Assembly (NCBI GenBank): GCA_038849525.1
Contig: JAWCMS010000001.1
Location: forward strand, 61,612-125,611
Reading direction: 5' to 3'
Length of the DNA: 64,000 bases
From: Candidatus Pacearchaeota archaeon
GTDB lineage: Archaea; Nanobdellota; Nanobdellia; Pacearchaeales; JAHJTO01
The notes beneath the pieces were generated by a model that ran no database searches, was not told where the DNA came from, and saw nothing but the letters and a program-made list of their open reading frames with translations. A program made the position numbers and the translations under genes. This document shows, piece by piece, positions 2,379 to 21,163 of this stretch (positions are counted from its first letter, which is position 1; each line of letters opens with the position of its first letter).

Positions 2379-4568
2379 TTATTGATTAAACTTTTTTTCT
2401 TCTGTTTCTATTTCTCTAAAAGGCATTTTTGACTCTTCTTTTATTTTTTCAAGAACTCTTGTAAGAGCAGGTTTTTTGGGCTTCCGCAGTTTAAGAAGGA
2501 CAAATAAGATAACTATGATAATAGCAAGAATAATCATTATTATACTTATTGTTTTCATTGATACTTTTTCTTTTACTTGAGATTGCACACACGTTCCAAG
2601 ACAACATTCTCCTTCTTTTGTTATTGTCAGATTTCCTGAACAAGAATAACCAGAACTACAAATTTTTCCATTCAGTTCAGAACAGGATTTTTCTGAAATA
2701 ACTTGCTGTTTTGCAGAAATATAAACAGGAATACTTACCGACTGTCCTTTTGATTCTGCTATTATCTGTCCTAAATAATCAAAAGGATATTTTGATTTAA
2801 ATTTGATTGTTAAAGTTTCAAGTGAATTAGGTTTCAGAGTGATTGAAAGTGGGATTTCTTCGATAACTTCGGAAAGACCCCAAATCGCAAAATCTATAGT
2901 TAATGGCTCTGATGCAAGATTTCTAATAGTTATGTTAACTTCATGAACTTCATTAATATTTATTGTTTCATTAATCTCAGATTCAAGAAATTGAAAATTT
3001 GCTGTTTTCAAAGTTTTTTCAGATACTGTTTGATTTATAATATTTGTTTTTGTTCCAAGAGGAATAATAACAAGAGGAACAGAATAGCTTCTTTCTACAT
3101 TTTTGAAGTTGTAAGTTATATCAATAGAAGAAATTGTAAACTCTTGAATCTGTGGAATTGAAAAAGTTAACGGTAAAGTTGTTTTAGGGGGCAAGATTAT
3201 ATTTTGTGAAGCACCATAAAAAACTGCTTTAAGAGTGACTGGAAAAATGCCTTTGTTTGTAATTTTAAAAGTTATATTTTGCATAGGATTTGCCTTTATA
3301 ATTCCCTGTTCCAAAGAAACAATAGGTTCGATTTCATCTGAAAAAACTTGTAAAGCAAGTGCTTGTTCTTCAAAACTAAAATTATCAAGATTCTCTCGTA
3401 TCCAACTTTTTGCTTTTGCATTTTCTATTGCTTTAATTGCTGAAACAGTCGCTGAAACACTTGAGATATTTGAAATTGTCAATGAAAAATTGCTCCAGTA
3501 ACCTAAAGGATGCTGGTTATTCACCAACCATTCGTTAAAATCTGGCTTTTTTGTATAAATATAAGCGTAAGCTATTTCTTCTGTTGTCTTTGCATTTTCA
3601 ACAAGCCAAGATTCTGCTTTTGTGTCCCGAAATATTTGCAATGCATACGCTGTCGCTTCTGCATTACACTCGCTTTTATAAGTTTTACCCCAACATTTTT
3701 TATTATTTATTATTCCTAAAGAAAATTCATGAACTTTACCAAGATAGGTATGGGAAATTTTTGCGCTATTGACATTACAATCTAACGAAACATTAATTAT
3801 TTCAGCGTCAGGAAAGTCAAGAGAAAATTCATTTATGCCTAAAGGAATCGATAGTTCTTTTACTTTTTCATTAATTGTCAAATTACATTTTTTTTCTGAA
3901 TCTGATTCTACAACTAACATCCATATTCCATTATCGACTGAATTTTGCGAGTCGAACAGCCAATTTTTTGCTTTTTCTGTATTATTACCTAAAGCGAGAA
4001 TAGCGAGAGATGTTGACTTGACAGTACAGACAGGAGAAGGCCAACATTCACCTGTTCCTTTTTTTAAAAGAGCATTTTTGCCCTCCGCTGTTAACTCTGG
4101 AAAATTAGTTAATGCAATAAGCGCTAAAGAAAGCTCATCTGAATTTAAATAGGCTGATCTAGTTCTGACTTTGTCTGCAAGCGAAGAATAATAATATTGA
4201 AGTGGTTTTTTTACTGTGAATGAAATTTTTTTACTTTCTTCTTTCAATGTTTCATTTTCTCTGCATATGACTTTTGCAACAGAAAGTTCATTTAAACCGT
4301 ATTTTTCTGGAATATCAAAAAAAACAATCCATTTATTCGCAGCTATCTGCTCTAATGAGAATATGGGAAAATATTCCTTTCCATTACAATAAAAATAAAT
4401 GTTATTATAAGTGAGAGGTTTTATTAGATTACCAGTAATTTCTACTTGGAAAGTTTCTCCTGCGAGATATAGTGTCTTTGCTGTCTTTATATCTAAACAT
4501 TGCGCTGAAATTAAAGGGATAGAGAAAATTAAAAAAATAAAAGTAAATAAAAAGTATAACTTTTTCAT
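2379..4568 (-). CDS. Secreted membrane-anchored protein: alpha/alpha-toroid (prenyltransferase/squalene-cyclase-like repeats), Ig-like domains, Cys-rich module
   Basis: Signal peptide; AKNWLFDSQ / WLVNNQHPLGYW QW-like repeats; beta-rich Ig-like region; CSELNGKIC..CC; C-terminal TM and basic tail; upstream AAAGAGGTT. Confidence 0.6.
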   Translation of the reverse strand: MKKLYFLFTFIFLIFSIPLISAQCLDIKTAKTLYLAGETFQVEITGNLIKPLTYNNIYFYCNGKEYFPIFSLEQIAANKWIVFFDIPEKYGLNELSVAKVICRENETLKEESKKISFTVKKPLQYYYSSLADKVRTRSAYLNSDELSLALIALTNFPELTAEGKNALLKKGTGECWPSPVCTVKSTSLAILALGNNTEKAKNWLFDSQNSVDNGIWMLVVESDSEKKCNLTINEKVKELSIPLGINEFSLDFPDAEIINVSLDCNVNSAKISHTYLGKVHEFSLGIINNKKCWGKTYKSECNAEATAYALQIFRDTKAESWLVENAKTTEEIAYAYIYTKKPDFNEWLVNNQHPLGYWSNFSLTISNISSVSATVSAIKAIENAKAKSWIRENLDNFSFEEQALALQVFSDEIEPIVSLEQGIIKANPMQNITFKITNKGIFPVTLKAVFYGASQNIILPPKTTLPLTFSIPQIQEFTISSIDITYNFKNVERSYSVPLVIIPLGTKTNIINQTVSEKTLKTANFQFLESEINETININEVHEVNITIRNLASEPLTIDFAIWGLSEVIEEIPLSITLKPNSLETLTIKFKSKYPFDYLGQIIAESKGQSVSIPVYISAKQQVISEKSCSELNGKICSSGYSCSGNLTITKEGECCLGTCVQSQVKEKVSMKTISIIMIILAIIIVILFVLLKLRKPKKPALTRVLEKIKEESKMPFREIETEEKKFNQ

Positions 4569-4610
4569 GCTAACCTCTTTTTACATAAGCAGAATTAATG
4601 ATTAATAAAT

Positions 4611-6536
4611 TTATTTCTTTTCTTCTGCTAGCTTTTTTAATTTTTTTAAAGTTTCATCTAATTCTTTCGTTTCTTTTCTGACTAATGGTTTTGTTGGTTG
4701 TGGCTGTGATTGTATTGCTGCTTGTGAAGGTATCTGTTGAGAAGGTTGTTGTATTAATGGACGGATTTGGGGTTTATAACTTGAAAGGGTAGTAGGAAAA
4801 AGAGATTTTTTAATTATTGGTTTTTTGAAAAAACCTTTTTTATAAAGAAAAAATGCGCCTGCTGCTAATGCAAGAATGATTATGATAATGATAAAAGGAA
4901 GAATATTTGTTTTTGATTTACATTTTTCTGAACAGCAATAAGAAGTATCCGAAGCTGTAAGCCATACACCTTTACATTCCTGTTCTGCAGTACACTTAAA
5001 TCCTTTCTGTTCAGAGCATGTTTTGACAGGTATACATGTTGCAAGACAGCATTCATCGGTATCGAAGGCTTTAACTATATGTTCTGAGCATTTTTCATCT
5101 AAGGAACAGATTTTACCTCCTTTTTGAGAACATGTTTCTGTGCAATCATTATCATTGAAGTCTATTTTGCCATCGCCATCATTGTCAAAATTATCATCAC
5201 AAGTTAATTCCTCGGGATATTCGCATCTTTTTTGTATTCCTGTAATAAGAGTTATCCATTCTCCCCTACATTCTCTTTTTATGCAGTCATTAGAAGTTTT
5301 GCATTCTACTCTTGCACCTTTTGGTTTACAGCATATTCCTGATATGCAGGAATAATCTGCCTGCTCTTCATCTTCAAAACAAGAGATTCTACATACATAA
5401 TCATAAACATCTTGGCATTCATTACTTGGCAAGATTCTTTGGACAGAGGGCCATACTAATGAAAGAATTAATGATGTATCCCTTAGTTTAGCAGTTGTGC
5501 CCCACCCATCTTTTTGTTCATTAATAAGCCATTCTTTTGCTTTTGTTATATTATCTGAAGAATAATCCTTAAGAGCATTAATTGCAAGAGCAGTATCATA
5601 ATATTTGCCAAATCCACCTACATCCGACCAGTAGCCTTCTTTACTTTGTTGAGCTAAAAGAGATTCTGCATATTCTGTTTTTGACGTTAGTAGATAAAGA
5701 AATGCATCTGCCATAAATTTCTGATTTTCTTCTTTTTGGTCAATAAGATAAGGAATTAAAAAAGAATAATCATTGCCTGTTTCTTTTAATGCATAAGCAG
5801 CCCATAATGTTGAATCATAGTTGCATGCTATTCCTTCTTTCAAACAAACTGTTCTTATCGCAACAGTTGCAGAAGTTGGAAAGCTTTCTGAAGGCACATA
5901 CAAAATGTCTTGATGTTTATAAGGCAAAGAAACTACAGATGGTTTAGTGCATGTAATATCAAAGGATTTATCAAGACATGTTTTTGAAATTTCAAGCCAA
6001 TAATTGTCATTTGTGAGGCTTAAACAGGTCGGTGTTGAACCAGACCAAGAATAAGTTTTGTTTTTATAAACATTAAGATTGTAAGTTTTTGAATCATAAT
6101 TAATTGTGCAATTTGTCTCATATTCTGAATCTATCTGCAAAAACCATCTAATTCCTGTAGAAGTATACGCTGCTTTTCTTTCGAGCAACCATGAAACAGC
6201 AGAGTCTGTATTCTGTCCAAGCCTATTTAATGCTAGAACTGCAAAAGCCGTGGATTTTATTTTGCATGTTGGGGATGGCCAGCATTCTCTGTTTTTAGAC
6301 TTATTTAATAAAGTATTTTTTCCTTCTGTTGCTAATCTATCATCATATGAAAGCGCAAAGAGAGCAAGGGAAATATCGTCTGAAGAGAGAATATTCCATT
6401 TTCCATCAACCTGATTTATTAACCATAAATTTGCCTGTTGAACAGCTTTTGTTTCCAAAGTTTCATTTATCTCTGCAGATGTCAGAGGAATTAGAAAGGT
6501 TGCCAGTAAAAGTAACAACAAAACCCTCTTTTTCAT
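4611..6536 (-). CDS. Paralogous secreted membrane-anchored alpha-toroid protein with Cys-rich repeats and DxDxDG Ca-binding motif
   Basis: Shares ECWPSPxCxxKST.xA.LAL with 2379..4568; LLAQQSKEGYW, AKEWLINEQKDGW; CDDNFDNDGDGKID; TM; Pro/Gln-rich tail. Confidence 0.6.
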   Translation of the reverse strand: MKKRVLLLLLLATFLIPLTSAEINETLETKAVQQANLWLINQVDGKWNILSSDDISLALFALSYDDRLATEGKNTLLNKSKNRECWPSPTCKIKSTAFAVLALNRLGQNTDSAVSWLLERKAAYTSTGIRWFLQIDSEYETNCTINYDSKTYNLNVYKNKTYSWSGSTPTCLSLTNDNYWLEISKTCLDKSFDITCTKPSVVSLPYKHQDILYVPSESFPTSATVAIRTVCLKEGIACNYDSTLWAAYALKETGNDYSFLIPYLIDQKEENQKFMADAFLYLLTSKTEYAESLLAQQSKEGYWSDVGGFGKYYDTALAINALKDYSSDNITKAKEWLINEQKDGWGTTAKLRDTSLILSLVWPSVQRILPSNECQDVYDYVCRISCFEDEEQADYSCISGICCKPKGARVECKTSNDCIKRECRGEWITLITGIQKRCEYPEELTCDDNFDNDGDGKIDFNDNDCTETCSQKGGKICSLDEKCSEHIVKAFDTDECCLATCIPVKTCSEQKGFKCTAEQECKGVWLTASDTSYCCSEKCKSKTNILPFIIIIIILALAAGAFFLYKKGFFKKPIIKKSLFPTTLSSYKPQIRPLIQQPSQQIPSQAAIQSQPQPTKPLVRKETKELDETLKKLKKLAEEKK

Positions 6537-6673: not shown

Positions 6674-7939
6674 TTAAACCTTTTTTCGTGCTGACTTTTT
6701 TTCATTTTGTTCCTGCTCTTTTAACTTATTTTTCATAAATATATAATTCACAGGATTTTTTATTTTTTTACAGAAAAAGTCAGGATGGCAGATTCCTAAT
6801 TCTTTATATCTTGAATTTTCACAATTTGGTGGAAGCATCGTTTTGTGTTTGAAAGTCCAGTTTAGCTGTGAAAGAATGTAACCGCTCCTTAAAGGCAAAT
6901 AATTAAGTTTGTTCCATCCTTCTATTTTTTCCTTTATTTCATGCTCTGGAAGGTTTATAGAGCGCAAAAAATTAAGTAAAATAAATAATGCCCTCTTTCT
7001 GCCATCTTCTTTTATACCTTGCAAACAATTTTTTATGCATGGTGGATAAGTTTCTGGAGAAACATCTTTAATTGTAATTATTTTTGCAGATTTTTTTTCT
7101 TCTTCTTTTTTTGTTTTTTTGCTCCAGTCAAGAGCCTGAATCACAAGCTCTTTGGCTTCATCTTTTTTTGCTTGAGGCAAAAATGATTTTGGATATACTC
7201 TATCTGGCTTTGCCCATCCAGGGCTGAATTCATCTAACTGCTCTGGTTTAATTACAATACTTACCAATCCTGATTTTTCATTTAAAGAATATGGTGCGCG
7301 GAATAGATGTCTTGGAGAAACAAGAATCATATCTGGAATTACTTCCTTCGCAAAATCTCCCGAGACTTCTATTCCTTTTATATAATTGTTTTTTTGTAGT
7401 TTGCTCATTTCATCTGACAGTTTATTTTTAATAAATGCTGAAAGATATTGAACAATTATCCTTGGTAATTCTGGAAAAAGAATCTCTGTTCTTATACCAT
7501 TTATTTCTGAAGGAAATGCACTCCATGGAACTCCTATATGAAATCCTTTATTTCCAGAATATTTTATCCCAATACTTGAAATATTATGAAATTTTAACGC
7601 TTCAATCATCAATTTTGCTGCTATTTTGCTATAATCAAGAAACTTGCTGTCTATGTCAATAATCAAATCCCATCCTATTCTTAAAGAATCAAATTCTTCT
7701 TTTGTCATGTCTGTTTTTAGTTCTAGAGGATTGCTCCATAACTCTTCTGAACAGTGAAAAGATGTAACTCCCTTTTCTATCAGCCCTTGAAAATCATTTT
7801 CATATTCTAAAGTATCTGGGCGTTTGCCAAATCTGCCATTAAAATTAAATGCAACTTCTCTTTTTCTTGAGAACTCAAGTAAAGTCTTTTGAATGTCTTT
7901 TCTTGAATAATAAGATCTTGCTTTGCTTATAATATTCAT
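6674..7939 (-). CDS. priS: Fused DNA primase (PriS catalytic domain + PriL C-terminal Fe-S domain)
   Basis: DLIIDID, SGNKGFH, RHLFRAPYSLNEKSG (PriS); YPPCI..PPNC..GIC..C..IKNP (PriL-CTD); likely ATG at 7939. Confidence 0.88.
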   Translation of the reverse strand: MNIISKARSYYSRKDIQKTLLEFSRKREVAFNFNGRFGKRPDTLEYENDFQGLIEKGVTSFHCSEELWSNPLELKTDMTKEEFDSLRIGWDLIIDIDSKFLDYSKIAAKLMIEALKFHNISSIGIKYSGNKGFHIGVPWSAFPSEINGIRTEILFPELPRIIVQYLSAFIKNKLSDEMSKLQKNNYIKGIEVSGDFAKEVIPDMILVSPRHLFRAPYSLNEKSGLVSIVIKPEQLDEFSPGWAKPDRVYPKSFLPQAKKDEAKELVIQALDWSKKTKKEEEKKSAKIITIKDVSPETYPPCIKNCLQGIKEDGRKRALFILLNFLRSINLPEHEIKEKIEGWNKLNYLPLRSGYILSQLNWTFKHKTMLPPNCENSRYKELGICHPDFFCKKIKNPVNYIFMKNKLKEQEQNEKKSARKKV

Positions 7940-8055
7940 AAAATTTTTTATCTTAATATTTTTAATAATCTTTTGATGATTGAGTATATAGTTGTTAATC
8001 AATACAATAAACCTTAAAAATAAGAAGAGATAGATTTCTCTGTTAATTTCCAAAA

Positions 8056-8772
8056 ATGTTACTAAAACTTGCTGATCCAAAATTGCTTACAGACTCTATA
8101 GCTATAATTTCTGAATTAGTAACTGAAGTAAGAATTAAAGTAAACAAAGTAGGATTGAGTATAATCGCTGTTGATCCTGCAAATGTAGCTTTAGTATCAT
8201 TAAAAATTCCTCATTCGTGCTTCACCCATTTTGAATCAGAAGAAGAAAGTTTATGCGTGAATCTCGAAGATTTTAAACAGATATTAAAAAGAGCAGAAAT
8301 TGGTTCTACATTAATACTCGAGAAAGAAAATAATAAATTAAAGATAAGCATAGAAAATGAAATAAGAAGAAATTTTTATCTTTCGCTAATAAATATTGAA
8401 CAAGAAGAGAAAATGATTCCTGAATTAGAATTCAATGCTTCAGTTGAATTGGCATCTGAAATGTTTAAGCATGCAATTGAAGATGCAGCTGTTGTTTCAG
8501 ATGCGTGTTCATTTGAACTTGGAAAAAACTTTATAATAGAAGCTAAAGGTGCATTAAACGCAACAAGAACCGAATTTTCTAGCGATGAAGCGAAATTTAA
8601 AGGGGAAGCGAAAGCAAAATATTCTCTCGAATATTTACAAAAATTCATAAAAGCATCAAGGTTTTCTGACAAAGTAAGTCTACAATACAAGACTGATTTT
8701 CCTCTGCGTTTAGATTTCAGAGGAAATATAGACATGACATTTATTCTTGCTCCAAGAGTTGAAGAAGATTAA
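8056..8772 (+). CDS. pcn: DNA polymerase sliding clamp PCNA
   Basis: AVDPANVALVSL, YSLEYL, PLRLDF..FILAPRVE. Confidence 0.97.
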   Translation: MLLKLADPKLLTDSIAIISELVTEVRIKVNKVGLSIIAVDPANVALVSLKIPHSCFTHFESEEESLCVNLEDFKQILKRAEIGSTLILEKENNKLKISIENEIRRNFYLSLINIEQEEKMIPELEFNASVELASEMFKHAIEDAAVVSDACSFELGKNFIIEAKGALNATRTEFSSDEAKFKGEAKAKYSLEYLQKFIKASRFSDKVSLQYKTDFPLRLDFRGNIDMTFILAPRVEED

Positions 8773-8896: not shown

Positions 8897-9679
8897 ATGT
8901 TCAAAAGAGGACAGATTACTTTATTTGTGATTATAGCTATTCTTCTTGTTGGTGCTGTAGCTATATTTTTACTTTTTCAGCAAGGAATAATAAAACCTTC
9001 CGTATCTCCAGAAGAAGCTGAGAAAATCGTTGCTTCTGAAGTTCAACCAGTAAAGGATTTGATGATTAGATGTGTAAAAGAATCTTATTTTGATGCTTTA
9101 AAGAAAATAGGCATGCAAGGAGGGTACTGTTCTCCTGTGCCAGTAAAACATAATCAGATTGGAAATTATTCTGTTCCTTATCTTGTTGAGAAGTCTGGAG
9201 AGAGATATATTAATAATATTCTTTTGCTTGAAGGAGATGGGATAACGATAGAAAAAGAAATAGAAAAATGTACAGACATGCAAAAGATAATGAAGTGTAT
9301 TAATAATTTTAAGTCATTTAAAGATGTAGATGTTAAAGCTAGCAGAGATATAAGAATAAATACAAAATTCTTTAATGGAAAGATTATTTTAACAATAAAT
9401 TATCCTTTAACAATTTCTAGAGGAAGTGCAAAGACAACAATAGAGGAAATGAAACTTGAAATAAAATCAGGACTGCAAAATGTCTATAATGCGGTTATAG
9501 AAATAACAAATTCTGAAATAAAGAATCATGATTTTAATATCAATGAATTTGCAAGAAAAAATCTTTTTGTAAGCATAGAAAGGCAAGGAGCGCTTGAAGG
9601 AATTTATTATTATTTAAAAACAAAACCTCAGCAAGAAGATGAAGAATCTTATGAATTTAATTTTATAGTTGAGAGATAA
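8897..9679 (+). CDS. Class III signal peptide (pilin-like) protein
   Basis: KRG|QITLFVIIAILLV basic-G|Q-hydrophobic N-terminus. Confidence 0.7.
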   Translation: MFKRGQITLFVIIAILLVGAVAIFLLFQQGIIKPSVSPEEAEKIVASEVQPVKDLMIRCVKESYFDALKKIGMQGGYCSPVPVKHNQIGNYSVPYLVEKSGERYINNILLLEGDGITIEKEIEKCTDMQKIMKCINNFKSFKDVDVKASRDIRINTKFFNGKIILTINYPLTISRGSAKTTIEEMKLEIKSGLQNVYNAVIEITNSEIKNHDFNINEFARKNLFVSIERQGALEGIYYYLKTKPQQEDEESYEFNFIVER

Positions 9680-9680
9680 A

Positions 9681-12600
9681 ATGAAAAACCTAAAAATAAA
9701 ATTAATTGCATTAATTTTTTGCTTAATGCTATCTCTAACAACAGTGTCTTCAGCATTAGCTCTACAAATTCCTTTTGATGTTTTGTCTAGTGCTAATGCC
9801 CAAACTCAGGGAACATGCATAATTGACAATTCCAGAAGATATTTTTGCAATGAAAGTATCCCTGAAAGTCAATGCTATTTGTTTAGGGCAGGAAGAAGCG
9901 TTGATGAAGTAGAAGAATGCAAGCTTGGAACTTGCGTGCCTCTGGAAGAGGGCAGATGCATCAGCAATATAGAAAGAATAAAATGTGAATATAATAATGC
10001 TGGAAAGTGGTATTCTTCGGCTAAAGAAAATGTCGCTGATTGTAATATAGGATGCTGTGTTGCTCCGAATAAAGCAAGTTGTGAAATGGAAGAAAAAGCA
10101 AGCTGTGAAAAAAAAGGATATAACTGGAGTTCTAAATCTGAGGAAGAATGTAAACTAATTTGTGGGGCTGTCGAATACGGATGCTGTAATGAAGCTGGAG
10201 TATTTACAAACAAGCACAGACAGGAATGTAATGGTAGGTTTTATGGAAATGGAATTTATTGTTCTCAAGTCATTGGTTCTGGTATTCAAGCTTGTAAAGA
10301 CATAAGGCCTGGAGATGGAAGCACTGATAATGATAAATATGATTGTTATTGTTATGATAGCTCAGGAAAAAGAGAAATGATTGCCTCAAGCGTAAAGCAT
10401 GTAACAGCTGAAGGTGAAACAAATATCGGAAGCGGTGATTGCAATGAAAATGAAATCTGCAAAGATAATGATGGAGTAATGGGAGAGCCTGCTTACTGTG
10501 GTTCAACAAGCTGTATTGATTATTGTCCTAATTGCGAGCCTTCCAATCTTAAAAATGGGGAGTCGATATGTGCAAATGTTAACCTTGGATTTTTCAATCC
10601 TGAAATGAGAAGCAAAGCACTACAGAATTGGATAATAATGTGTCAAAATGGAGAAATAAAGGTAGATAGTGGATTTGATCCACAGGCAAAAAGAGAGAAA
10701 ATATGTATTGAAAAAATAGAAAACGGGTTAAAGACAACAAAAGTGATTGCTAACAAGTGGGAAGAATGCCAAAAATGCGGGGATAATGAAAAACTCTTGG
10801 ATATTTTAGGGTATATGCCTATAGTTGGAGGCACTGCTCTTTTTTTACTCCATTCTATTGGAATAGCTGATGCCTGTCAAGGAGATTCTGGACTTAGAAT
10901 TGGAGATAAATGTTCTGATATGGGAAAAACAAATGTAGATGGAAAGACAATACAGATGTGTGACGGAGGCAGAGGAGAATTTGGAATACTGGGATTAACT
11001 GCAAAAGATGAATATGACCATGACTTATGGGCTCCTATAGGTTCTTGTAATCCTATTTATCCTCCTGGAAGAGATGATACTTGCAACAAATGCGGATTTG
11101 GAAATGGTGGAGATCCTCTGACAAATCCTTGCACAGAAGAAGAGTGCAATCATCTTGGAGATTGTCAATTTTATCCTGATGAGGGAATTTTATCACAAGG
11201 AGTCATGACTGCAGGAATGACTGCGATTGGAACAGCTGTTGGATTTTACTCAACTTGCAAGATTGCTGGTGCTTTGGGTTGGGGAGTATGTGAAAATTCT
11301 GCTGCAAATCTAATGAAAGAAATGTTCTCAACAAATCCGAACATGTATTATTGGGCACTGTATTCTATAGCCATGCAAATTACTGGGGCAGGAGCAGCTC
11401 AAGCGAATATAAAAGAACAACATACAGAATTGACTGAAAATTCTAAGATTCCTTTAAGAAATGGAATAATTGTTGCAAGGGCTGTTGAATATTCTCCTAC
11501 ATTGCTGTTTGGCGATGCAGTAACACTGGCAGCTGATGTGCTTTTACTTAAAAATAAAGGTTTTAATATTGAATATAAGGGAAAAAAATTAGGAATAGCG
11601 TCTGAAAAATTAAACAAAATTCTTAATGTTGTTGGAATTTTTGTGAATATCTATTATGCAGGAAGAGCTATGAATACAGGAAAATGCAAGGCAGAAAGTC
11701 CTTATTCTTGGGATGAGAAAAAAGAATTAGGACTTAGATGTGAAGATTGTGGTTGGGGAGAGGGACAGCCTTTCTGTACAAGAGAAAGATGTAATGTTCT
11801 TGGGGCAGATCCTTCTCTTGGAGACAGAGCAACATGCATTTTCATTCCAAAAGATGGAAAGGCATATGGAGAATGTAAAACAAAAGCTCCAGATGATGTA
11901 ACTGCTCCTGAAATAACTTACCTTAAAATAGAATATTTTGATTCGACAAAGAAAAAAATCAGCGAAGATTCAAGAACACCAAGTATAAACAGAAGAGAAG
12001 AGCTGCCTTTTAATACAACTTACATAAAAATTTCAGTGAAAACAAACGAACCTGCAAAATGCGCCTACTTATTGCAAGAAAATGAAAGAATGACTGATTC
12101 AAATTTCTTAAATGACAGTTACTATCCTTTAGAGCATGTAACTGATTACTTAAATTTTTCAAGAAATATTTTGCCTGCAACATTTACTTATTATATAAAA
12201 TGTAAGGATCCTGCAGGAAACTCGCAGTCACCTGAAGATGACAGATATTTTATAAGATTTAAAGTGGCTGGAGGGCCTGACACTGTTGCTCCTATTCTTG
12301 AATATATTGACCCTCAGGCATTTATGCCTGAAGGGACTAAAACAATCAATCTAAAAGTTCTTGCTTATGATAGCAATGGTGTAAGTGAATGCAAATACTA
12401 TACTGACACTACTGAGAACATAATGACAAGGCAAACAGGACAGAGATGTATGACTTCTGCTGAAAACAAGTGCGATATGTTCACTGCCCAAAATGTTTTG
12501 TTGAATTGTACTGAATTTACTTTAGGAAATACTGAAAGACTTGGATTAACAGGCGAGAAGCTGCAGGCATTCCTTAGCCAGCAGAAAGAATTTAGAGGAA

Positions 12601-13229
12601 CAAAAGTCTGTCCTTTAACAATAAAATGTAAAGATAGTAAGGGAAATGAAGCTGAATTTAACAATTCAATAACAATAACTTCTATGTTTAATTTGACAAT
12701 TTGGGATATAACAGACAAATATGACAGAACTCCTATATTCAATGTTTCAACTTCAAGAGCAACTGTATGCACTTATGAAATAAGCAATAAAAAATATGAC
12801 TTTAATGATCCTGTATACGGAATAAAAGAGCATGTTATTGAACATAATGAAACTTTGTTGCCAAGAAATACGCCCTACAGAATCACAGTTGAATGTAAGG
12901 ACATAGCAGGAACAAAAAGAAAGGAATCAAAAGATTTCACTGTCTTGCTTGATTCAAGTCCGCCTGAAATTGTAAGAGCTTACAGCGATGGAATGATTTT
13001 ACATATAGCAACAAATGAAAAGGCAATCTGCGTCTTCTCTACAAAAGACTGCAATTATGAATTTGATGAAGGAACAGGAATGCCTGAAGCAAGAACAATT
13101 CCAGAAATAACACATGAAACAATATTCAGAAAGGACATTTCTTATTATATAAAATGCAAAGATGAATGGGAAAATAAGCCTGCTGGCTGTACAGCAATAA
13201 TAAAACCTTATGAAATTGCTACTATCTAA
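9681..13229 (+). CDS. Giant secreted Cys-rich protein with central hydrophobic region and C-terminal Ig-like repeats
   Basis: Signal peptide; many GCC/CxxC modules; Gly/Ala-rich hydrophobic core; about four repeats ending Y/LxI(K/E)CKDxxGN; likely ATG 9681. Confidence 0.65.
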   Translation: MKNLKIKLIALIFCLMLSLTTVSSALALQIPFDVLSSANAQTQGTCIIDNSRRYFCNESIPESQCYLFRAGRSVDEVEECKLGTCVPLEEGRCISNIERIKCEYNNAGKWYSSAKENVADCNIGCCVAPNKASCEMEEKASCEKKGYNWSSKSEEECKLICGAVEYGCCNEAGVFTNKHRQECNGRFYGNGIYCSQVIGSGIQACKDIRPGDGSTDNDKYDCYCYDSSGKREMIASSVKHVTAEGETNIGSGDCNENEICKDNDGVMGEPAYCGSTSCIDYCPNCEPSNLKNGESICANVNLGFFNPEMRSKALQNWIIMCQNGEIKVDSGFDPQAKREKICIEKIENGLKTTKVIANKWEECQKCGDNEKLLDILGYMPIVGGTALFLLHSIGIADACQGDSGLRIGDKCSDMGKTNVDGKTIQMCDGGRGEFGILGLTAKDEYDHDLWAPIGSCNPIYPPGRDDTCNKCGFGNGGDPLTNPCTEEECNHLGDCQFYPDEGILSQGVMTAGMTAIGTAVGFYSTCKIAGALGWGVCENSAANLMKEMFSTNPNMYYWALYSIAMQITGAGAAQANIKEQHTELTENSKIPLRNGIIVARAVEYSPTLLFGDAVTLAADVLLLKNKGFNIEYKGKKLGIASEKLNKILNVVGIFVNIYYAGRAMNTGKCKAESPYSWDEKKELGLRCEDCGWGEGQPFCTRERCNVLGADPSLGDRATCIFIPKDGKAYGECKTKAPDDVTAPEITYLKIEYFDSTKKKISEDSRTPSINRREELPFNTTYIKISVKTNEPAKCAYLLQENERMTDSNFLNDSYYPLEHVTDYLNFSRNILPATFTYYIKCKDPAGNSQSPEDDRYFIRFKVAGGPDTVAPILEYIDPQAFMPEGTKTINLKVLAYDSNGVSECKYYTDTTENIMTRQTGQRCMTSAENKCDMFTAQNVLLNCTEFTLGNTERLGLTGEKLQAFLSQQKEFRGTKVCPLTIKCKDSKGNEAEFNNSITITSMFNLTIWDITDKYDRTPIFNVSTSRATVCTYEISNKKYDFNDPVYGIKEHVIEHNETLLPRNTPYRITVECKDIAGTKRKESKDFTVLLDSSPPEIVRAYSDGMILHIATNEKAICVFSTKDCNYEFDEGTGMPEARTIPEITHETIFRKDISYYIKCKDEWENKPAGCTAIIKPYEIATI

Positions 13230-13342
13230 AAATTTTTTTCTATGTAGATAAACAAAAGAATTACAACAGAATCGCTATTTTTCAGAAAAATCTATGGTTG
13301 ATAAACTAAGAAGATGTTTTGCTGGAATTAAAAAATGAAAAA

Positions 13343-13744
13343 TCAATCTTTCCAGGCAAGTATGCCTAAAACTATCAAGTTAACTATTGGAATTATCATC
13401 AATATACCTAACCATCCTGGCATACTTCTTCTTTCAGATATCTTCCAGAACCAAAAGGCCATTACTGCCAAGAAGACAATTCCGCCAATTACCGGTATGA
13501 AGTAAAGCAAAATTGCAAATATCTGCCACCAAGGTTGTTCTGCAATTTGAATTATTAACCAGATATTTACGACAGGAATCCATGCAAGCCATGCGTTTTC
13601 TGTTTTTGTCTTTTTCGCTATTGTCATCAATGCTAGAGAAGTATAGACATAAATGGCTATTACAACAATAGCTGCAAGAATCATTATTGTAAGACCCATA
13701 GCAGCTAAAGCACCCAATCCCAATATTTCTAGAGGTCCAACCAT
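13343..13744 (-). CDS. Small multi-TM membrane protein (DUF5684-like)
   Basis: IAKK...AWLAWIPVVNIW...IPIVNLI duplicated motif; AAAGGAGG Shine-Dalgarno upstream. Confidence 0.65.
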   Translation of the reverse strand: MVGPLEILGLGALAAMGLTIMILAAIVVIAIYVYTSLALMTIAKKTKTENAWLAWIPVVNIWLIIQIAEQPWWQIFAILLYFIPVIGGIVFLAVMAFWFWKISERRSMPGWLGILMIIPIVNLIVLGILAWKD

Positions 13745-13833
13745 CTCAGCCTCCTTTTAGATTATGAAAAAAAAACAATATTTAAATTTAACTAAACGTT
13801 AAGTATTAAAAACTTGAAAAACAATAAATTAGA

Positions 13834-14355
13834 ATGAAAAAAAGAGGGCAGATTGAAATTTCATTTCAGCTAATCTTTTCTTTAATTTTGATTGCGACAT
13901 TTATTTATGCGGCAATCTATGGAATAAGATATTTTCTTGAGACAGCTGATTTGGCTAAAATAAATTATTTCAATGCCGAACTGCAATCAAAAGTAGAGAC
14001 AGCATGGCTTTCTACTGAAATCTCGCAAGATTATGAACTTTCGCTTCCTACAAGAATAAAGTATGTATGTTTTAGCCAACCAAATGATTTGACTTTAGCA
14101 AAACTAAAAGCGGCAAATATTCCTGAATGCGCAGATTTTGAAAATTATATAATAACTTTTAGAGATATGAACATGTTTTTTTGCCCTGCAGAAAAAGTCT
14201 GGAAGATAGGAGCTCCTATTTACATTTACATTAACTGCAAAGGCAAGGACTGTTTACAATTTGAAAAAACACCTTACTGCATCAAAAACGAAAAAGGAAA
14301 AGTCAAAATTAAACTAGAAAAAAATTATGGTGAGACAAAGATAAGGCTGTCTTAA
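13834..14355 (+). CDS. Class III signal peptide (pilin-like) protein
   Basis: KKRG|QIEISFQLIFSLIL; LPTRIKYVCF; several Cys. Confidence 0.7.
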   Translation: MKKRGQIEISFQLIFSLILIATFIYAAIYGIRYFLETADLAKINYFNAELQSKVETAWLSTEISQDYELSLPTRIKYVCFSQPNDLTLAKLKAANIPECADFENYIITFRDMNMFFCPAEKVWKIGAPIYIYINCKGKDCLQFEKTPYCIKNEKGKVKIKLEKNYGETKIRLS

Positions 14356-14421
14356 TAGCATTAAAGTTAGATTTAGTGTATTTATATATGATTTAAAATA
14401 GAAATAATTCAATAATTAAAA

Positions 14422-15327
14422 ATGAATAAAATAAAAAAACTCAAGAAAGCACAAGGAATGCAGTTTAGCTGGATTTTCGCATTAATCATTGGAGGAGTGA
14501 TATTATTTTTTGCAATCTTTTTCTCAGGAAAACTTTTTCAGTTAAAAACTTATGAAGCAGAAGCAGAGCTAACAAAAAACTTAGACATTTTGCTAAACCC
14601 TTTTACTTCAATAAGCTATGCAGAAGTCACTTTAAGCAAGCCCATTAGCTTAGCTAAAAAAACAGAGATAAACTTTAGCTGTAATTCTATGGATGATTTA
14701 CAGACAATTTCAACAAAGATAGGAAAAGCAGAGTCGTTCAGTTATAACATAAGAAATAAGTATATTTTTTCTGAAGATTTCAATACAAAAGAATTATGGG
14801 TTTTTGCCAAACCTTTTAATATGCCGTGGAAAGTTGACGACTTGATTTTTGTTGTTTCTAAAGATTATTGCTTTGTAAATCCGCCTGAAAAAATAAAAAA
14901 TGAACTTTCTAATTTAAATGCAACATTGATAAAAGTTGTTTCTGACATAAGAAACTGCAAGCAAGAATCAGCAAAAGTATGCTTCTCAGGAACATGTGAT
15001 ATTTATGTTAATACTGCCAGTAGTTATGTAAAAACAAAGCAAGGCAGCTTTAATTTTTTAGATGATTCAAGCATGTATGCAGCTATTTTTGGTAGCAAGC
15101 AGTACAGCTGCAATCTTGAAAGGTTATTTAAAAGATTAGAAATACAGACAAATATCTTTTTGAAAAAAGCCGATTTATTATCTGCAAGAGGATGCTATGA
15201 AGCTGAAAAAATCAAGCCTTCATTAAAAAAGATGGAAACAGCCGTAAAAGCAAGAGATTATATGAATATTAAAACAACAGCTATTGAAATTGAAAGCAAT
15301 AATCCTGTTTTATGTCCTTTATATTAA
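14422..15327 (+). CDS. Class III signal peptide (pilin-like) protein
   Basis: KKA|QGMQFSWIFALIIGGVILFF; Cys pairs; C-terminal CPLY. Confidence 0.7.
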   Translation: MNKIKKLKKAQGMQFSWIFALIIGGVILFFAIFFSGKLFQLKTYEAEAELTKNLDILLNPFTSISYAEVTLSKPISLAKKTEINFSCNSMDDLQTISTKIGKAESFSYNIRNKYIFSEDFNTKELWVFAKPFNMPWKVDDLIFVVSKDYCFVNPPEKIKNELSNLNATLIKVVSDIRNCKQESAKVCFSGTCDIYVNTASSYVKTKQGSFNFLDDSSMYAAIFGSKQYSCNLERLFKRLEIQTNIFLKKADLLSARGCYEAEKIKPSLKKMETAVKARDYMNIKTTAIEIESNNPVLCPLY

Positions 15328-15328
15328 A

Positions 15329-15805
15329 ATGACAAACATGAAAAAAAACATTAAAAGAAAAATATTACATCAGAAGAAAGCACAGGTAAAAATACAGGAA
15401 ATGGCATTTGTCCTACTTGCTATTGCTTTACTTGCGATTATTGCATTCATATTTTTTGTAAAATTTCAAGGAGAGAATATAGCAAGAACAGCAGAGATGA
15501 CAAGACAGCAAGAGGCATTGTCTTTGCTTGGCAAGATAGCAGCTTTACAAGAGCTAAGATGCTCTAAAGGGGAAATATGCATAGATGAAGATAAAGCTAT
15601 TATTGCAAAGGATTATGACCTTAAGAATATTTTTCAGGGAATAAACAAGGTTGAAATAAAAAGGATTTATCCTACTGGAAATAATATAATAATTTATCAG
15701 TCAGGAAAAGGAAATCAAAGCGTATCAACCTTTATTAGTTTATGCAGGCAAGAATCTGATTGGAATTGTGGTATAGCTTTATTGGAATTATGGTACCAAA
15801 AATAA
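15329..15805 (+). CDS. Class III signal peptide (pilin-like) protein
   Basis: KKA|QVKIQEMAFVLLAIALL; ELRCS..CIDEDK; start at ATG 15329 or 15338. Confidence 0.7.
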   Translation: MTNMKKNIKRKILHQKKAQVKIQEMAFVLLAIALLAIIAFIFFVKFQGENIARTAEMTRQQEALSLLGKIAALQELRCSKGEICIDEDKAIIAKDYDLKNIFQGINKVEIKRIYPTGNNIIIYQSGKGNQSVSTFISLCRQESDWNCGIALLELWYQK

Positions 15806-16212
15806 CTAAAAACAAAAAAGGGCAAGAAGAGATAATGGGATTTATATTAGTTGTAGTAATGGTAGTTGTTATAGGAATAGCCTTTTTGTTTTTCTTTACA
15901 CCAAGAGCGCAAGAAAGGCAAGACTTGGAACTGCAAAACCTTCTTTATTCATGGCTTTCTGTTACTATAAACGGCAATGAGATTAAGGAAACAATAAACA
16001 ACTGTTTTTGGGCTTGTGAATTAGATTTTCCTGTCAGCATACTTGACAGTTCAATAAATTACAAATTTGGAGATAGTCTTAATGGTTACAGTTTAAATAT
16101 TACAGGAACAGCAGAGTTCTATTATGAAAAAGGCAATCTTACAGGCAATTTAAGAACAGCTGTTATTCCATTAAAAGACAATGAAATAAAACTAAGAGTA
16201 TATTTTTCCTGA
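15790..16212 (+). CDS. Class III signal peptide (pilin-like) protein
   Basis: KKG|QEEIMGFILVVVMVVVIGIAFLFF; ATG at 15790. Confidence 0.7.
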   Translation: MVPKITKNKKGQEEIMGFILVVVMVVVIGIAFLFFFTPRAQERQDLELQNLLYSWLSVTINGNEIKETINNCFWACELDFPVSILDSSINYKFGDSLNGYSLNITGTAEFYYEKGNLTGNLRTAVIPLKDNEIKLRVYFS

Positions 16213-16239: not shown

Positions 16240-16605
16240 TCAAAAATTAATATTTATCTGTAAGCTATCTAAATTAAGAATGGGCATTAAGCTTTTTCTT
16301 TTTGAATCTTTTTTTTCTGTTTTTACTAACTTAACAATGTTTAAATGTTCAAGTACTGAAAGATCTTTTCTGACTGCCTTAAAGTCTCTTCCAAGATGCT
16401 TTGCGAGAATATAAACAGAAGAAGGCTTTTTTTCTTTTATTGTATGGATTATTTTTGCTTTTTCATTGCTTAAAATGCTTCTTACAATTGGAAGTTCAGT
16501 AAAAATTTCTTCTTTTGAAAATAAATGAAATAATACTGAAAAAGCATTTCTTTCTGGCTCTAATGAGATATTTATTATGCCTTCTCGCTTCTTTTTTTCT
16601 GTCAT
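16240..16605 (-). CDS. Winged-HTH transcriptional regulator (COG4190/HVO_A0114-like)
   Basis: ILSNEKAKIIHTIKEKKPSSVYILAKHLGRDFKAVRKDLSVLE HTH; divergent from S-layer gene. Confidence 0.8.
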   Translation of the reverse strand: MTEKKKREGIINISLEPERNAFSVLFHLFSKEEIFTELPIVRSILSNEKAKIIHTIKEKKPSSVYILAKHLGRDFKAVRKDLSVLEHLNIVKLVKTEKKDSKRKSLMPILNLDSLQININF

Positions 16606-16981: not shown

Positions 16982-19270
16982 ATGAAGTTTAGCTTTAAGA
17001 AGATAGCACCAATATGCGCAGGAGCTATTTTACTAGGCTCTACAATAGGATTTGCAGGAGCAATGGCGCAAAGTGTGAGCTATCCTAATGACTTTGCAGA
17101 TGCAGTTGTTGTCATAGGCTCTGCTGGAGTAGCAGACATGGCAGCAGCTAACAATATTGCAGCTGATTTAGGAAAGCTTACAACTGGAGTTGAAACTTCT
17201 GTAAGCCAAGGTTGGCTTGTTAAAAAGGCAGGAGAAAAGTTGAACTATGGAGAAGACATCTTTGATATTGATAGTAGCATAGGTTCAGATGAACTTCCTG
17301 ACTTGCTTGCAGATGGTGTCTATAAAGAGACAAAAGGAAACACTGATAATGATGTCAATTATGAACAATACATTGACTTCACGAACAATGGAAACTTACT
17401 TGATTTCACAGTAGATGATACAGTAGATAATGAACCTGCTGGTTCGTATCTTAAACTTACAAAAGGCACCAATGCATTTACATACAGGCTGAAATTTACC
17501 GACAAGGTAAAATTTGATAATTCAAGTTCAACAACAACAAAAGAGGATTTTGAATTATCAAAGTTGAAGATGCTTGGCACAGAATGGACAATAATTGACG
17601 CTACAAGTTCTGGAGGAGCTATCAATAAGCTTGTCTTAATGGGTGGAGCAGCTACAGCAACACTTAAATCTGGAGCAAAAACAGATTTGATTGTTGGTGG
17701 AAAAAGCTACTCAGTTGAAGCTACTGTCTATAGTGGAAAAGATCTTGGAAAAGCTTCTTTCGTAATAAACGGAGAAGAGCTTACAATAGACGAAGGCTCG
17801 ACAGACGAGCTTTCTGATGGCACTGTAGTTGGAGTAACAGAAATTTCAACTTCTCAAAAAGAAGCAACTCCGGATATTGTAACTTTCTATCTCGGAGCAA
17901 GAAAACTTGTTCTTGAGAATGGAGAGCCGGTAGAACTGAATGGAGAGGAAATTGACGGAAGCACTGTTGCAATAACATCAAGTAACAAAGAGCTTTCTCA
18001 AATTTCAATCTCATACGCGCCAGATGAAGATGACGTCTTTATTGGTGTTGGCAAATCCTGGACAGACCCTGTATTCGGAGCAATAAAGTTTGTATTTGCA
18101 GGCTTAGAAAAGAATACAGAAAAAATAGAAGTATCAACAAGTGCTGATAAAGGAAAGCTTAAAGTCAAAGACACTGCAGGAAACACAATTGAGATACCGT
18201 TTATCGACAATGACACAAATGTGTTCCTTGGAGATAAATTAGTACCTACAAACACTGCAACAATTTCAACTGGATTGGGCAATTTGATTACCCAGGATGG
18301 AGGTTATTGTACAGGCAAGTCATCTCTTGAAGACTGCGAGAAGATAAAGTTCTTAGCAGTTGATTCAAGCGGAGAAGCGAGGATCATAGAAATAAAAAAC
18401 ATCGACCTTTCAAAAAGTGAGATAGACTTCTATGACGTAACAAAAGGCTTAACTATTGACAATGTAGCCTTTGTGAATGGAACAAATGATGCGCTTGACG
18501 TGGGCTTTATGGAAATAAACATAAACATTAGCATAGAAGATAGATCAATTGTTCTGAATGACATAAACAAGTATAACGTAAGCGGAGCATTCCAGACTTC
18601 TTTAGAAGGAAGCCTGAACTTAAGCCAAAGTGGTAAAGTTGTAAGAATACAGCTTTATCAAGAAGATAACAGCCAGATAGCAGAATTCAATATAACTGTT
18701 GAGAGTGATGGAGACATGATTGTTGACAACATCGATGCAACTCTTTATGACATTGAAGAGGATTCTGACACCCAGGTTGGTATAGACAAAACTAAATGGG
18801 GTGCATTATTTACATGGGACAGTGAAGATAAAAATAGCTTAACAATAGAATATCCTGAAGAAAAAGTTGTTGCTAATGTCTATGTCGCACCTATAAGCGC
18901 AATAGTTTCTGGCGGTGGAATTGTGCCTGTTGTCAAAGATACTGAACTTGGAGACCTTAAAGCAACTAAAAACTTAGTTGTTGTCGGAGGTTCAGCTATC
19001 AATAGAATAGCTGCAGAATTGTTGAAAGTAAGCTTCCCAACTTACGGAACAGATGCTGCATGGCAATCTGCAACCGGAGTCGGCCCTGACATGGCTATAA
19101 TCAAGCTGTTCTCAGGAGCAGACAAGACATTTGGAGCTGGTAATGTGGCTTTACTTGTCGCTGGTTACGAAGCTGCTGATACACAAGCTGCTGCTAAGTA
19201 CTTGATAACAAATCCAGGTGCTGTCACAACAAAAGTTATAAAGAAAACAACTGCGGGAACCTACGCTTAA
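16982..19270 (+). CDS. Major S-layer protein (Methanococcales-type N/C-terminal domains)
   Basis: MKFSFKKIAPICAGA signal; VVVIGS..ADMAAANNIA; ELPDLLADG; NLVVVGGSAINRIAAEL; LLVAGYEAADTQAAA; acidic; higher GC and strong SD suggest high expression. Confidence 0.85.
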   Translation: MKFSFKKIAPICAGAILLGSTIGFAGAMAQSVSYPNDFADAVVVIGSAGVADMAAANNIAADLGKLTTGVETSVSQGWLVKKAGEKLNYGEDIFDIDSSIGSDELPDLLADGVYKETKGNTDNDVNYEQYIDFTNNGNLLDFTVDDTVDNEPAGSYLKLTKGTNAFTYRLKFTDKVKFDNSSSTTTKEDFELSKLKMLGTEWTIIDATSSGGAINKLVLMGGAATATLKSGAKTDLIVGGKSYSVEATVYSGKDLGKASFVINGEELTIDEGSTDELSDGTVVGVTEISTSQKEATPDIVTFYLGARKLVLENGEPVELNGEEIDGSTVAITSSNKELSQISISYAPDEDDVFIGVGKSWTDPVFGAIKFVFAGLEKNTEKIEVSTSADKGKLKVKDTAGNTIEIPFIDNDTNVFLGDKLVPTNTATISTGLGNLITQDGGYCTGKSSLEDCEKIKFLAVDSSGEARIIEIKNIDLSKSEIDFYDVTKGLTIDNVAFVNGTNDALDVGFMEININISIEDRSIVLNDINKYNVSGAFQTSLEGSLNLSQSGKVVRIQLYQEDNSQIAEFNITVESDGDMIVDNIDATLYDIEEDSDTQVGIDKTKWGALFTWDSEDKNSLTIEYPEEKVVANVYVAPISAIVSGGGIVPVVKDTELGDLKATKNLVVVGGSAINRIAAELLKVSFPTYGTDAAWQSATGVGPDMAIIKLFSGADKTFGAGNVALLVAGYEAADTQAAAKYLITNPGAVTTKVIKKTTAGTYA

Positions 19271-20650: not shown

Positions 20651-21163
20651 TTATATCTTTATTTTCTTAAAGTCGGAAATAAAGGGTATTTCTTTTATTT
20701 CTGCAAACTTAACAGTAAAAATCCATATTAAAATCACTAAAAGTATAGAAACAGCATACCATAATATAAAATGGGCAGTATTAAAAAAGATTGAATTATT
20801 TATCAAAAGAACTGAAAGAAAAAAAATCCTTAAAATATTTATCAGCAGAAAAATTCCACAATCAGCAAGCAATATAAAAATTCTTTTTTTAAATTTTATT
20901 TTTGCTGTAGAAAAGTTTAAGATAAAAAGCAGAAAATAGGCAGAACCTGCAACGCATGCATTTATTATTTCAATTTCAGTATTATTTGCAATTATAATAT
21001 TTTCAATTATTGTAGTTTTATAAAAAATGCTTAAAAGGATATATACAGAATAAATTGTTAAAGGTGAAAAAACAAGATAAAAAATATTTAGAAATATGCC
21101 AAAAAAAAGCATAAGAGTATAACGAAAGATAAGATCCTTAAAATCCATGATTAATTCATTCAA
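20651..21163 (-). CDS. Short exosortase/archaeosortase-family protein (pacearchaeosortase-like)
   Basis: Multi-TM; catalytic-triad motifs EIINACVAG (Cys), INILRI (Arg), FNTAHF (His). Confidence 0.8.
   Translation of the reverse strand: MNELIMDFKDLIFRYTLMLFFGIFLNIFYLVFSPLTIYSVYILLSIFYKTTIIENIIIANNTEIEIINACVAGSAYFLLFILNFSTAKIKFKKRIFILLADCGIFLLINILRIFFLSVLLINNSIFFNTAHFILWYAVSILLVILIWIFTVKFAEIKEIPFISDFKKIKI

Follow-up and report, generated by a model that had tools for sequence, protein, structure and literature searches.

The DNA analysed here is a 64,000-nucleotide stretch of contig JAWCMS010000001.1 (positions 61,612 to 125,611, forward strand) from assembly GCA_038849525.1 of a Candidatus Pacearchaeota archaeon; the whole stretch is called the window. 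The genome comprises 659,512 bases in 9 contigs and is 94% complete. Within 7.3 kb of the window lie five genes for pilin-like proteins, named A and H1 to H4, and one for a giant cysteine-rich secreted protein, named G. They are listed below with their neighbours in window coordinates, with lengths in amino acids (aa) and an arrow at each predicted cleavage site.

8897..9679, + strand: A, pilin-like protein, 260 aa; site KRG↓QITLF, of the class III type RG↓Q, no Glu at +5
9681..13229, + strand: G, giant secreted protein, 1182 aa, 65 Cys; partner of A
13343..13744, − strand: DUF5684 membrane protein, between G and H1, outside the conserved module
13834..14355, + strand: H1, pilin-like protein, 173 aa; site KRG↓QIEIS
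14422..15327, + strand: H2, pilin-like protein, 301 aa; site KKA↓QGMQF
15329..15805, + strand: H3, pilin-like protein, 158 aa; site KKA↓QVKIQE; remote likeness to DUF7287 proteins
15790..16212, + strand: H4, pilin-like protein, 140 aa; site KKG↓QEEIM; start QxExxG nearly invariant
16240..16605, − strand: HVO_A0114-family helix-turn-helix (HTH) protein, divergent from the S-layer gene
16982..19270, + strand: S-layer protein, next after the HTH gene

Each of the five pilin-like open reading frames (ORFs) begins with a class III-type signal, composed of a short basic leader, a K/R-G/A↓ site and a hydrophobic helix. A FlaFind-like rule (motif plus hydrophobicity) returned 31 of the 3244 six-frame ORFs scanned genome-wide, several of which are clearly spurious, and five of the 31 are those of this block, a density that is more than chance. 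The site recurs in the homologue alignments, with Q at +1 in 26/27 A, 60/92 H1, 83/92 H3 and 89/92 H4 sequences. Among the H2 homologues G or A stands at −1 in 81/92, and the +1 position is poorly aligned; all 27 A homologues carry Phe, Tyr or Trp at +5. The A and G genes are joined by TAA-A-ATG at 9677-9683, and G, with a Cys content of 5.5%, has an N-terminal hydrophobic signal of the Sec type.

These ORFs, motifs and coordinates, and the tight link of A to a secreted protein of ~1180 aa, are as described in a first-pass annotation made from the sequence alone, and the FlaFind-type check that it proposed recovers all five genes. It had also placed the cluster directly upstream of an S-layer regulator and its gene. 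The five class III ORFs do share one strand, but the opposite-strand DUF5684 gene, left out of that annotation and without a match in the 120 related loci described below, splits the block. Likewise, the HTH and S-layer genes do follow H4, but the term 'regulator' was inferred from position only. A scan for sigma-70 promoters and terminators, which is unsuited to archaea, gave results at chance level, and a search of sequencing runs revealed no RNA holder among those listed.

The four H genes form an ordered unit that extends far beyond this genome. We fetched 120 loci, 20 around G matches and 100 around H3 matches, and 107 of them contain an H3 call; the others are L149 and L156, which fall below the cutoff, and 11 G-centred loci without H3. 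All four genes are present at 102 of the 107 H3 loci, and their strand and order are the same in 102/102. The conservation of gene order that the annotation had suggested examining is thus borne out, and the ordered module is near-universal in this taxonomic order. The H3 profile matches 116 of the 121 genomes of the order and 134 of 151 genomes of a phylum sample, all of one class and mostly with one match per genome; a deeper profile regained 6 of the 22 missed genomes, 2 of them weakly. The best 80 H3 relatives in the genome_contigs collection include 79 labelled as archaea, mostly Pacearchaeota, Woesearchaeota or Nanoarchaeota. Because only 1 of 42 genomes from other families of the class gave a clear H3 match (two more were weak), the description 'class-wide' was dropped; as judged from these profile matches, the module is characteristic of a large subclade and does not extend across the class as a whole. 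The counts include related genomes, which are not independent samples.

The giant and its partner are linked to this core more loosely. A Cys-rich gene of ≥450 aa lies within 3 kb of the H genes or inside them at no fewer than 88 of the 107 H3 loci, and an A gene occurs at 68 or more, both counts being lower bounds since the locus flanks are limited. In 75 of 91 cases the gene right behind A encodes a large Cys-rich protein, and a locus often contains several (two or more) such A-giant pairs. Matches to G were found in 35 of 41 genomes and in 1302 representatives at E≤0.001, and its nearest Atlas clusters are archaeal and without names. G-type giants occupy 34 of the 49 order-level loci and 16 of the 58 wider loci, and in the remaining loci other Cys-rich giants of 900-4000 aa fill the giant slot; in many relatives G is split into an N-terminal half of ~600 aa and a C-terminal half of 700-1200 aa. 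The genes that follow H4 also differ between the two groups: the HTH gene is found at 45/49 order-level and 0/58 wider loci and the S-layer gene at 29/49 and 0/58, by a single-sequence search that may miss distant S-layers.

Several further arrangements were observed. Giants of ~4000 and >3380 aa, Cys-rich and with a C-terminal hydrophobic segment, lie directly 5' of H1 in two loci (L143:2203-14190 and L068:2-10147). In the wider-class loci L060, L068, L071, L073, L076 and L077, H4 is followed by 8-12 further class III genes, several of them encoding pilins of 80-105 aa. The contig that carries the window (C1) holds a stand-alone A-giant pair at 236887-243695, in which a second A-like gene of 634 aa precedes a 1635-aa secreted Cys-containing protein that matches neither G nor the 120 related loci.

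The first-pass annotation had held that the five pilin-like proteins have no likeness to one another outside the N-terminal helix, which proved too strict for H1 and H2: they align by hhalign over 76 mature residues with a probability of 96.5, and H3 and H4 align weakly (70.8). For the globular parts the claim stands, as no pair among the five families aligned after trimming of the first 28 mature residues (probability ≤1). In the predicted structure of H2 (pLDDT 91.7), a 45-residue helix (residues 14-58) precedes an antiparallel sheet, after which come a small α/β part and a bundle of helices at the C terminus. A long α1 helix reaching beyond the membrane segment is thus indicated for H2, as well as for H1, the profile of which matches the α1 helix of the pilin PilE1 (8pfb) over 46 residues (6-51, E=5e-4). 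Fold searches with H2 yielded no pilin among the matches listed; generic C-terminal helical bundles filled the lists, and the N-terminal part was barely probed. Among the Atlas clusters with a name, DUF7287 is the closest to H3 (feature score 0.90, TM 0.63), a predicted likeness that the profile comparison reproduces weakly (best E=7e-6, in a small set), and most of the recovered DUF7287-like genes lie directly behind platform-like genes. Complex prediction for the globular parts of H1, H2 and H4 with H3 as the partner scored 0.85-0.86, and two controls with replaced partners scored 0.00. However, the control that kept H3 and replaced H2 reached 0.73, inside the required margin, and the result weighs neither way.

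G is predicted to consist of three main parts.

9810..11180, + strand: G residues 44-500, Cys-rich repeats and a domain, with many invariant Cys (model, alignment)
11181..11669, + strand: G residues 501-663, hypervariable, Gly/Ala-rich and moderately hydrophobic, predicted all-helical, with a Cys pair at 526/537 (low model confidence)
11901..13226, + strand: G residues 741-1182, four predicted Ig/Fn3-like β-sandwiches, a putative stalk (model, fold search)

The G model from AlphaFold2 (101 sequences, mean pLDDT 82, pTM 0.54) runs from a signal helix through the Cys-rich half (44-500), modelled with confidence, and an all-helical region of poor model quality (506-663) to a short Cys block and the sandwiches (745-1175). 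The Cys-rich half carries a conserved hydrophobic D-x-x-G-Y-x-P-x-x-G motif near residue 374; a pre-toxin-TG likeness of this motif was considered and dropped, as Pfam gave no support for it in 40 G homologues. Residues 741-1182 were modelled at a pLDDT of ~90, and the C-terminal half matched Ig, Fn3 and PKD-type domains with Z scores of 8-10.7 (best: Z 10.7, rmsd 2.6 over 86 residues) and SiiE with Z 9.7 (rmsd 4.8 over 167 residues), suggesting an Ig-like architecture as in adhesin stalks. These Ig-like matches filled the fold searches and residues 44-740 were barely probed; a search of PDB sequences with the G profile gave nothing significant.

Residues 501-663 form the most variable part of the protein. 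In a comparison of 27 full-length sequences, this core has an identity to G of 0.17-0.18 and the rest of the protein one of 0.26-0.40, and the second part of the core varies in length from 83 to 210 residues. The core of G contains 23% Gly+Ala (13% elsewhere), and its maximum 19-residue Kyte-Doolittle (KD) value is 1.48, as compared to peaks of 2.7-3.0 for the platforms, the peptidase and one anchored protein encoded in this genome. A boundary motif was found in 67 of 92 G-type proteins. In these, the Gly+Ala fraction is 0.27 in the core and 0.11 elsewhere (higher in 64/67), and the maximum KD is <1.8 in 21, 1.8-2.2 in 20 and ≥2.2 in 26. Glycine-zipper motifs of the form [GA]xxxGxxx[GA] number 223, as compared to 122 in shuffles, with an excess in 46/67 homologues; the core of G itself holds no full motif. 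Since at least two Cys are present in the core of 27 of the 28 close homologues, and one homologue (L118:6600-10241) has a LysM domain (E=2e-8) at this position, an outward-facing slot is suggested. A search of 68 core segments against Pfam returned this LysM and no glycine-zipper, membrane-inserting or toxin family. These features are in keeping with an exchangeable, outward slot that can make contact with a membrane; the third of the cores with strong hydrophobicity, however, could just as well be anchors in the membrane of the cell itself. For the penetration of host cells that the first-pass annotation had raised as possible, the Gly/Ala-rich hydrophobic core would give an anatomical basis only.

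Type IV filament machinery is present in the genome at a distance from the module. As the annotation had reported, the window contains no ATPase, TadC or peptidase gene; all matches fall outside it, ~115-130 kb off the module or on another contig, and the search elsewhere in the genome that it recommended found all three components. There are two T2SSE ATPases, one of 764 aa at 190.5 kb on contig C1 and one of 511 aa at 150.7 kb on contig C2. Two T2SSF matches lie behind the 511-aa ATPase and a 707-aa multi-pass gene lies directly behind the 764-aa ATPase. The single A24 peptidase has 261 aa and ~7-8 hydrophobic peaks by hydropathy count. On C1, positions 190530-208419 take in the genes for the 764-aa ATPase and the A24 peptidase, the platform-like gene of 707 aa and a series of class III genes, one of which encodes a small pilin of 91 aa. 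A second type IV filament locus, on C2 (147476-162089), comprises the ATPase of 511 aa, two TadC genes and a set of six class III genes, behind which come secreted proteins of 903, 805 (69 Cys) and 414 aa. The archaellin family PF01917 was unmatched in this 94% complete genome, with control matches in 4/14.

A full-length orthologue of the 764-aa ATPase (44-70% identical) is present in 34 of the 35 genomes chosen. It gives the sole match at E≤1e-10 in 8 genomes, 7 of which contain H3. Behind H4, wider-class loci carry homologues of a class III protein of 303 aa (14 loci) and of the 91-aa small pilin (13 loci, weak, E 1e-6 to 1e-3), and the genes for both flank the 764-aa ATPase and platform in the present genome.

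The module resembles several known systems in part. With the bacterial FimU-PilV-PilW-PilX-PilY1 (type IVa pilus), GspHIJK (type II secretion system, T2SS) and MshDOPQ sets it shares four dissimilar pilin-like genes in near-invariant order, a non-pilin secreted neighbour of ~1200 aa, and a pilin without Glu+5 that adjoins the large protein. The available part of PMC13533445 describes an invariant I-J-K order, loss of Glu+5 in the apical pilin and large adhesins behind it. However, there is no sequence link to the bacterial modules, and here a fifth pilin, A, pairs with the giant. We considered G as a PilY1/PilC-type protein and rejected this: it is not built like PilY1, because its C-terminal half is predicted to form the four Ig/Fn3-like sandwiches, without a Pfam match, in place of a C-terminal β-propeller. 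In addition, the model keeps the last strand of G within the domain to which this strand belongs, and G has the variable hydrophobic helical core.

A Gln at +1 is the EppA-type cleavage site. It is shared with the Epd pilus (type IV filament system 1) of Methanococcus maripaludis, as are a small major pilin and five or more minor pilins. In contrast to Epd, the genes here are not in an operon with an ATPase, platforms and a dedicated peptidase; the 261-aa peptidase, with its ~7-8 hydrophobic peaks, is at most a candidate for the EppA type, which has 9 TM segments, and PF04021 is unmatched. No counterpart of the giant is seen in the accessible portions of PMC13705601 and PMC4858521, the latter of which describes clade 1 pili. 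The Myxococcus Kil Tad pilus, for which the available text of PMC12075869 describes interchangeable Tips, shares duplicated minor-pilin sets and variable disulfide-rich distal domains for cell contact. There, the variable domain belongs to the pilin KilN, whereas here it resides in a separate Sec-type protein, to which we attribute no killing function.

Membrane-inserting domains with glycine zippers or hydrophobic hairpins, such as those of colicins, T6SS TMD effectors and phage tape-measure proteins, are built of Gly/Ala-rich, marginally hydrophobic helices. The G-type cores share this composition and the zipper-motif excess across homologues, but differ in the Pfam and motif negatives given above. 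On the whole, we are dealing with a real, conserved and unnamed module that is not a member of the PilY1 or Epd systems and that most plausibly works like a minor-pilin tip set.

On balance, we favour the reading that the module primes and tips a type IV filament that displays G as a variable contact protein. How its parts would cooperate we infer as follows. The five prepilins are likely cleaved by the prepilin peptidase of the genome, the A24 enzyme. H1-H4 would act as an invariant core that primes the filament, like GspHIJK or FimU-PilVWX. A would be the adaptor placing G at the tip; it has no Glu+5 and accompanies the giant, also in duplications. The fibre itself would be built by the 764-aa ATPase, the 707-aa platform and the 91-aa small pilin, ~115 kb away on the same contig. 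In G, the Ig-like domains would serve as a stalk, the disulfide-rich half as a rigid scaffold, and the variable Gly/Ala-rich helical core as the part that meets the envelope of a partner cell. The minor-pilin and tip part of the first-pass proposal is supported in this respect by the synteny, the machinery, the predicted α1 helix and sheet of H2 and the order beside a large secreted protein, but its comparison with PilY1 does not hold for the giant.

A number of observations weigh against this reading. None of the six proteins A, G and H1-H4 has a significant Pfam or NCBIfam match, no Pfam family is common to the 92 H1 or the 92 H3 homologues, and PF04021 (Class_IIIsignal) is unmatched anywhere in the genome. 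The match of H1 to PilE1 is confined to the helix, and PDB sequence searches found nothing significant for the A, H2, H3 and H4 profiles. The 764-aa ATPase occurs in at least six genomes without detectable H3 (G144, G149, G189, G206, G218 and G221). Because no homologue of either ATPase, of the platforms or of the peptidase was found in the 120 fetched loci, the link of the module to the 764-aa ATPase motor is indirect. One family (f3) keeps A+G and H1-H4 at separate loci. Finally, a strong hydrophobic segment lies within the last 400 residues in 41 of the 68 giants that are not of the G type; this, like the cores with KD ≥2.2, fits an anchor in the cell's own membrane.

A doubtful but serious alternative is an envelope complex without a fibre, in which the class III proteins stay in the membrane as in a bindosome and G spans its own membrane several times, together forming a fixed attachment site or an S-layer-associated portal. 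The HTH and S-layer genes behind H4 in most order-level loci would suit such a complex, as would the strongly hydrophobic cores of 26/67 homologues, the many wider-class giants with a C-terminal anchor and charged tail, and the lack of a motor gene linked to the module. Set against it, the core of G peaks far below the membrane proteins of the same genome (KD 1.5 versus 2.7-3.0) and stays below 1.8 in 21/67 homologues, its Cys residues and the one LysM point outward, and the S-layer and HTH link is undetected in the 58 wider loci that keep H1-H4, within the limits of the search described above.

A pilus for DNA uptake or exchange, with Com-like minor pilins or with G in the role of TraN, a Cys-rich mating-pair stabiliser, would scavenge nucleotides or move DNA; we judge it improbable. 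The four fixed minor pilins resemble the ComGD-G set in number, and the module lies behind primase and PCNA genes in many order-level loci, but ComEC (PF03772) is unmatched in this 94% complete genome (control matches in 10/14), 40 G homologues match no TraN or conjugation family, and no transfer ATPase was recognised beside the module, where only motor homologues were searched. More improbable still is a pseudopilus of the T2SS kind, which would drive a folded cargo (G, the S-layer protein or another) through the S-layer and release it. The sizes (three proteins of ~150-170 aa and one of ~300 aa) and fixed order parallel GspHIJK, and G does carry a Sec-type signal. However, no outer-membrane barrier is generally expected in these archaea, and the joint duplication and exchange of A with G fits a dedicated adaptor better than a general exporter.

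The surroundings of the module include a candidate additional component.

4611..6536, − strand: 641-aa Cys-rich secreted protein with a C-terminal membrane anchor, a probable module accessory

Homologues of this protein lie in or beside the module in 18 loci, directly preceding A in L037 and H1 in L107, and it is a probable accessory of the module. Weak squalene-cyclase/TED-like repeats (E 0.003-0.03) were found in 3 of 9 of these proteins, a weak likeness to the squalene-cyclase-like accessory near the Epd pilus. The region 2379-6536 (− strand) encodes two related membrane-anchored secreted proteins, of 641 and 729 aa. A gene for fused primase small and large subunits (6674-8080) is divergent from PCNA, and the primase-PCNA pair precedes A in many order-level loci. 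Further downstream, a pacearchaeosortase (20651-21163; NF033505, E=1e-49) lies 4 kb from the module and 1.4 kb behind the S-layer gene, with two conserved single-pass genes between the S-layer gene and it; its substrates may include proteins of this envelope cluster.

A full-text literature search revealed no paper on this cluster, although the supplementary tables of PMC13705601 may list its genes. This 2026 survey, in its accessible portion, describes Nanobdellati type IV filament genes as scattered and rarely ordered, with system-1 pilins in 1990 genomes. A Nanobdellota complete-genome preprint makes no mention of pili, pilin, adhesin, attachment, S-layer or type IV, and the word 'pili' does not occur in the available part of PMC11606122. 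A groundwater preprint (10.1101/2020.05.14.094862), in the text available, reports Pacearchaeota enriched in the host-size fraction, which is size-fraction evidence for attachment; according to the same preprint, DPANN genomes lack components of type IV pili.

The module bears on the means by which Pacearchaeota and Woesearchaeota locate their hosts and draw on them. It consists of six families without Pfam names, kept in order in cells with genomes of 0.5-1 Mb, and it offers concrete targets in the substrates of the peptidase and a four-subunit complex to reconstitute. The hypervariable domain of G may set host range, and the LysM in the core slot of one copy is a hint at peptidoglycan-bearing partners. 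In an extended form of the filament reading, which we consider unlikely, Pacearchaeota and Woesearchaeota would share an archaeal equivalent of HIJK, and the Pacearchaeota-type modules would deliver a polymorphic disulfide-caged protein, the hidden Gly/Ala-rich hairpins of which would insert into the host membrane to open a feeding junction. If true, this would supply the apparatus for host contact that has so far been missing for one of the largest DPANN groups without cultured members.

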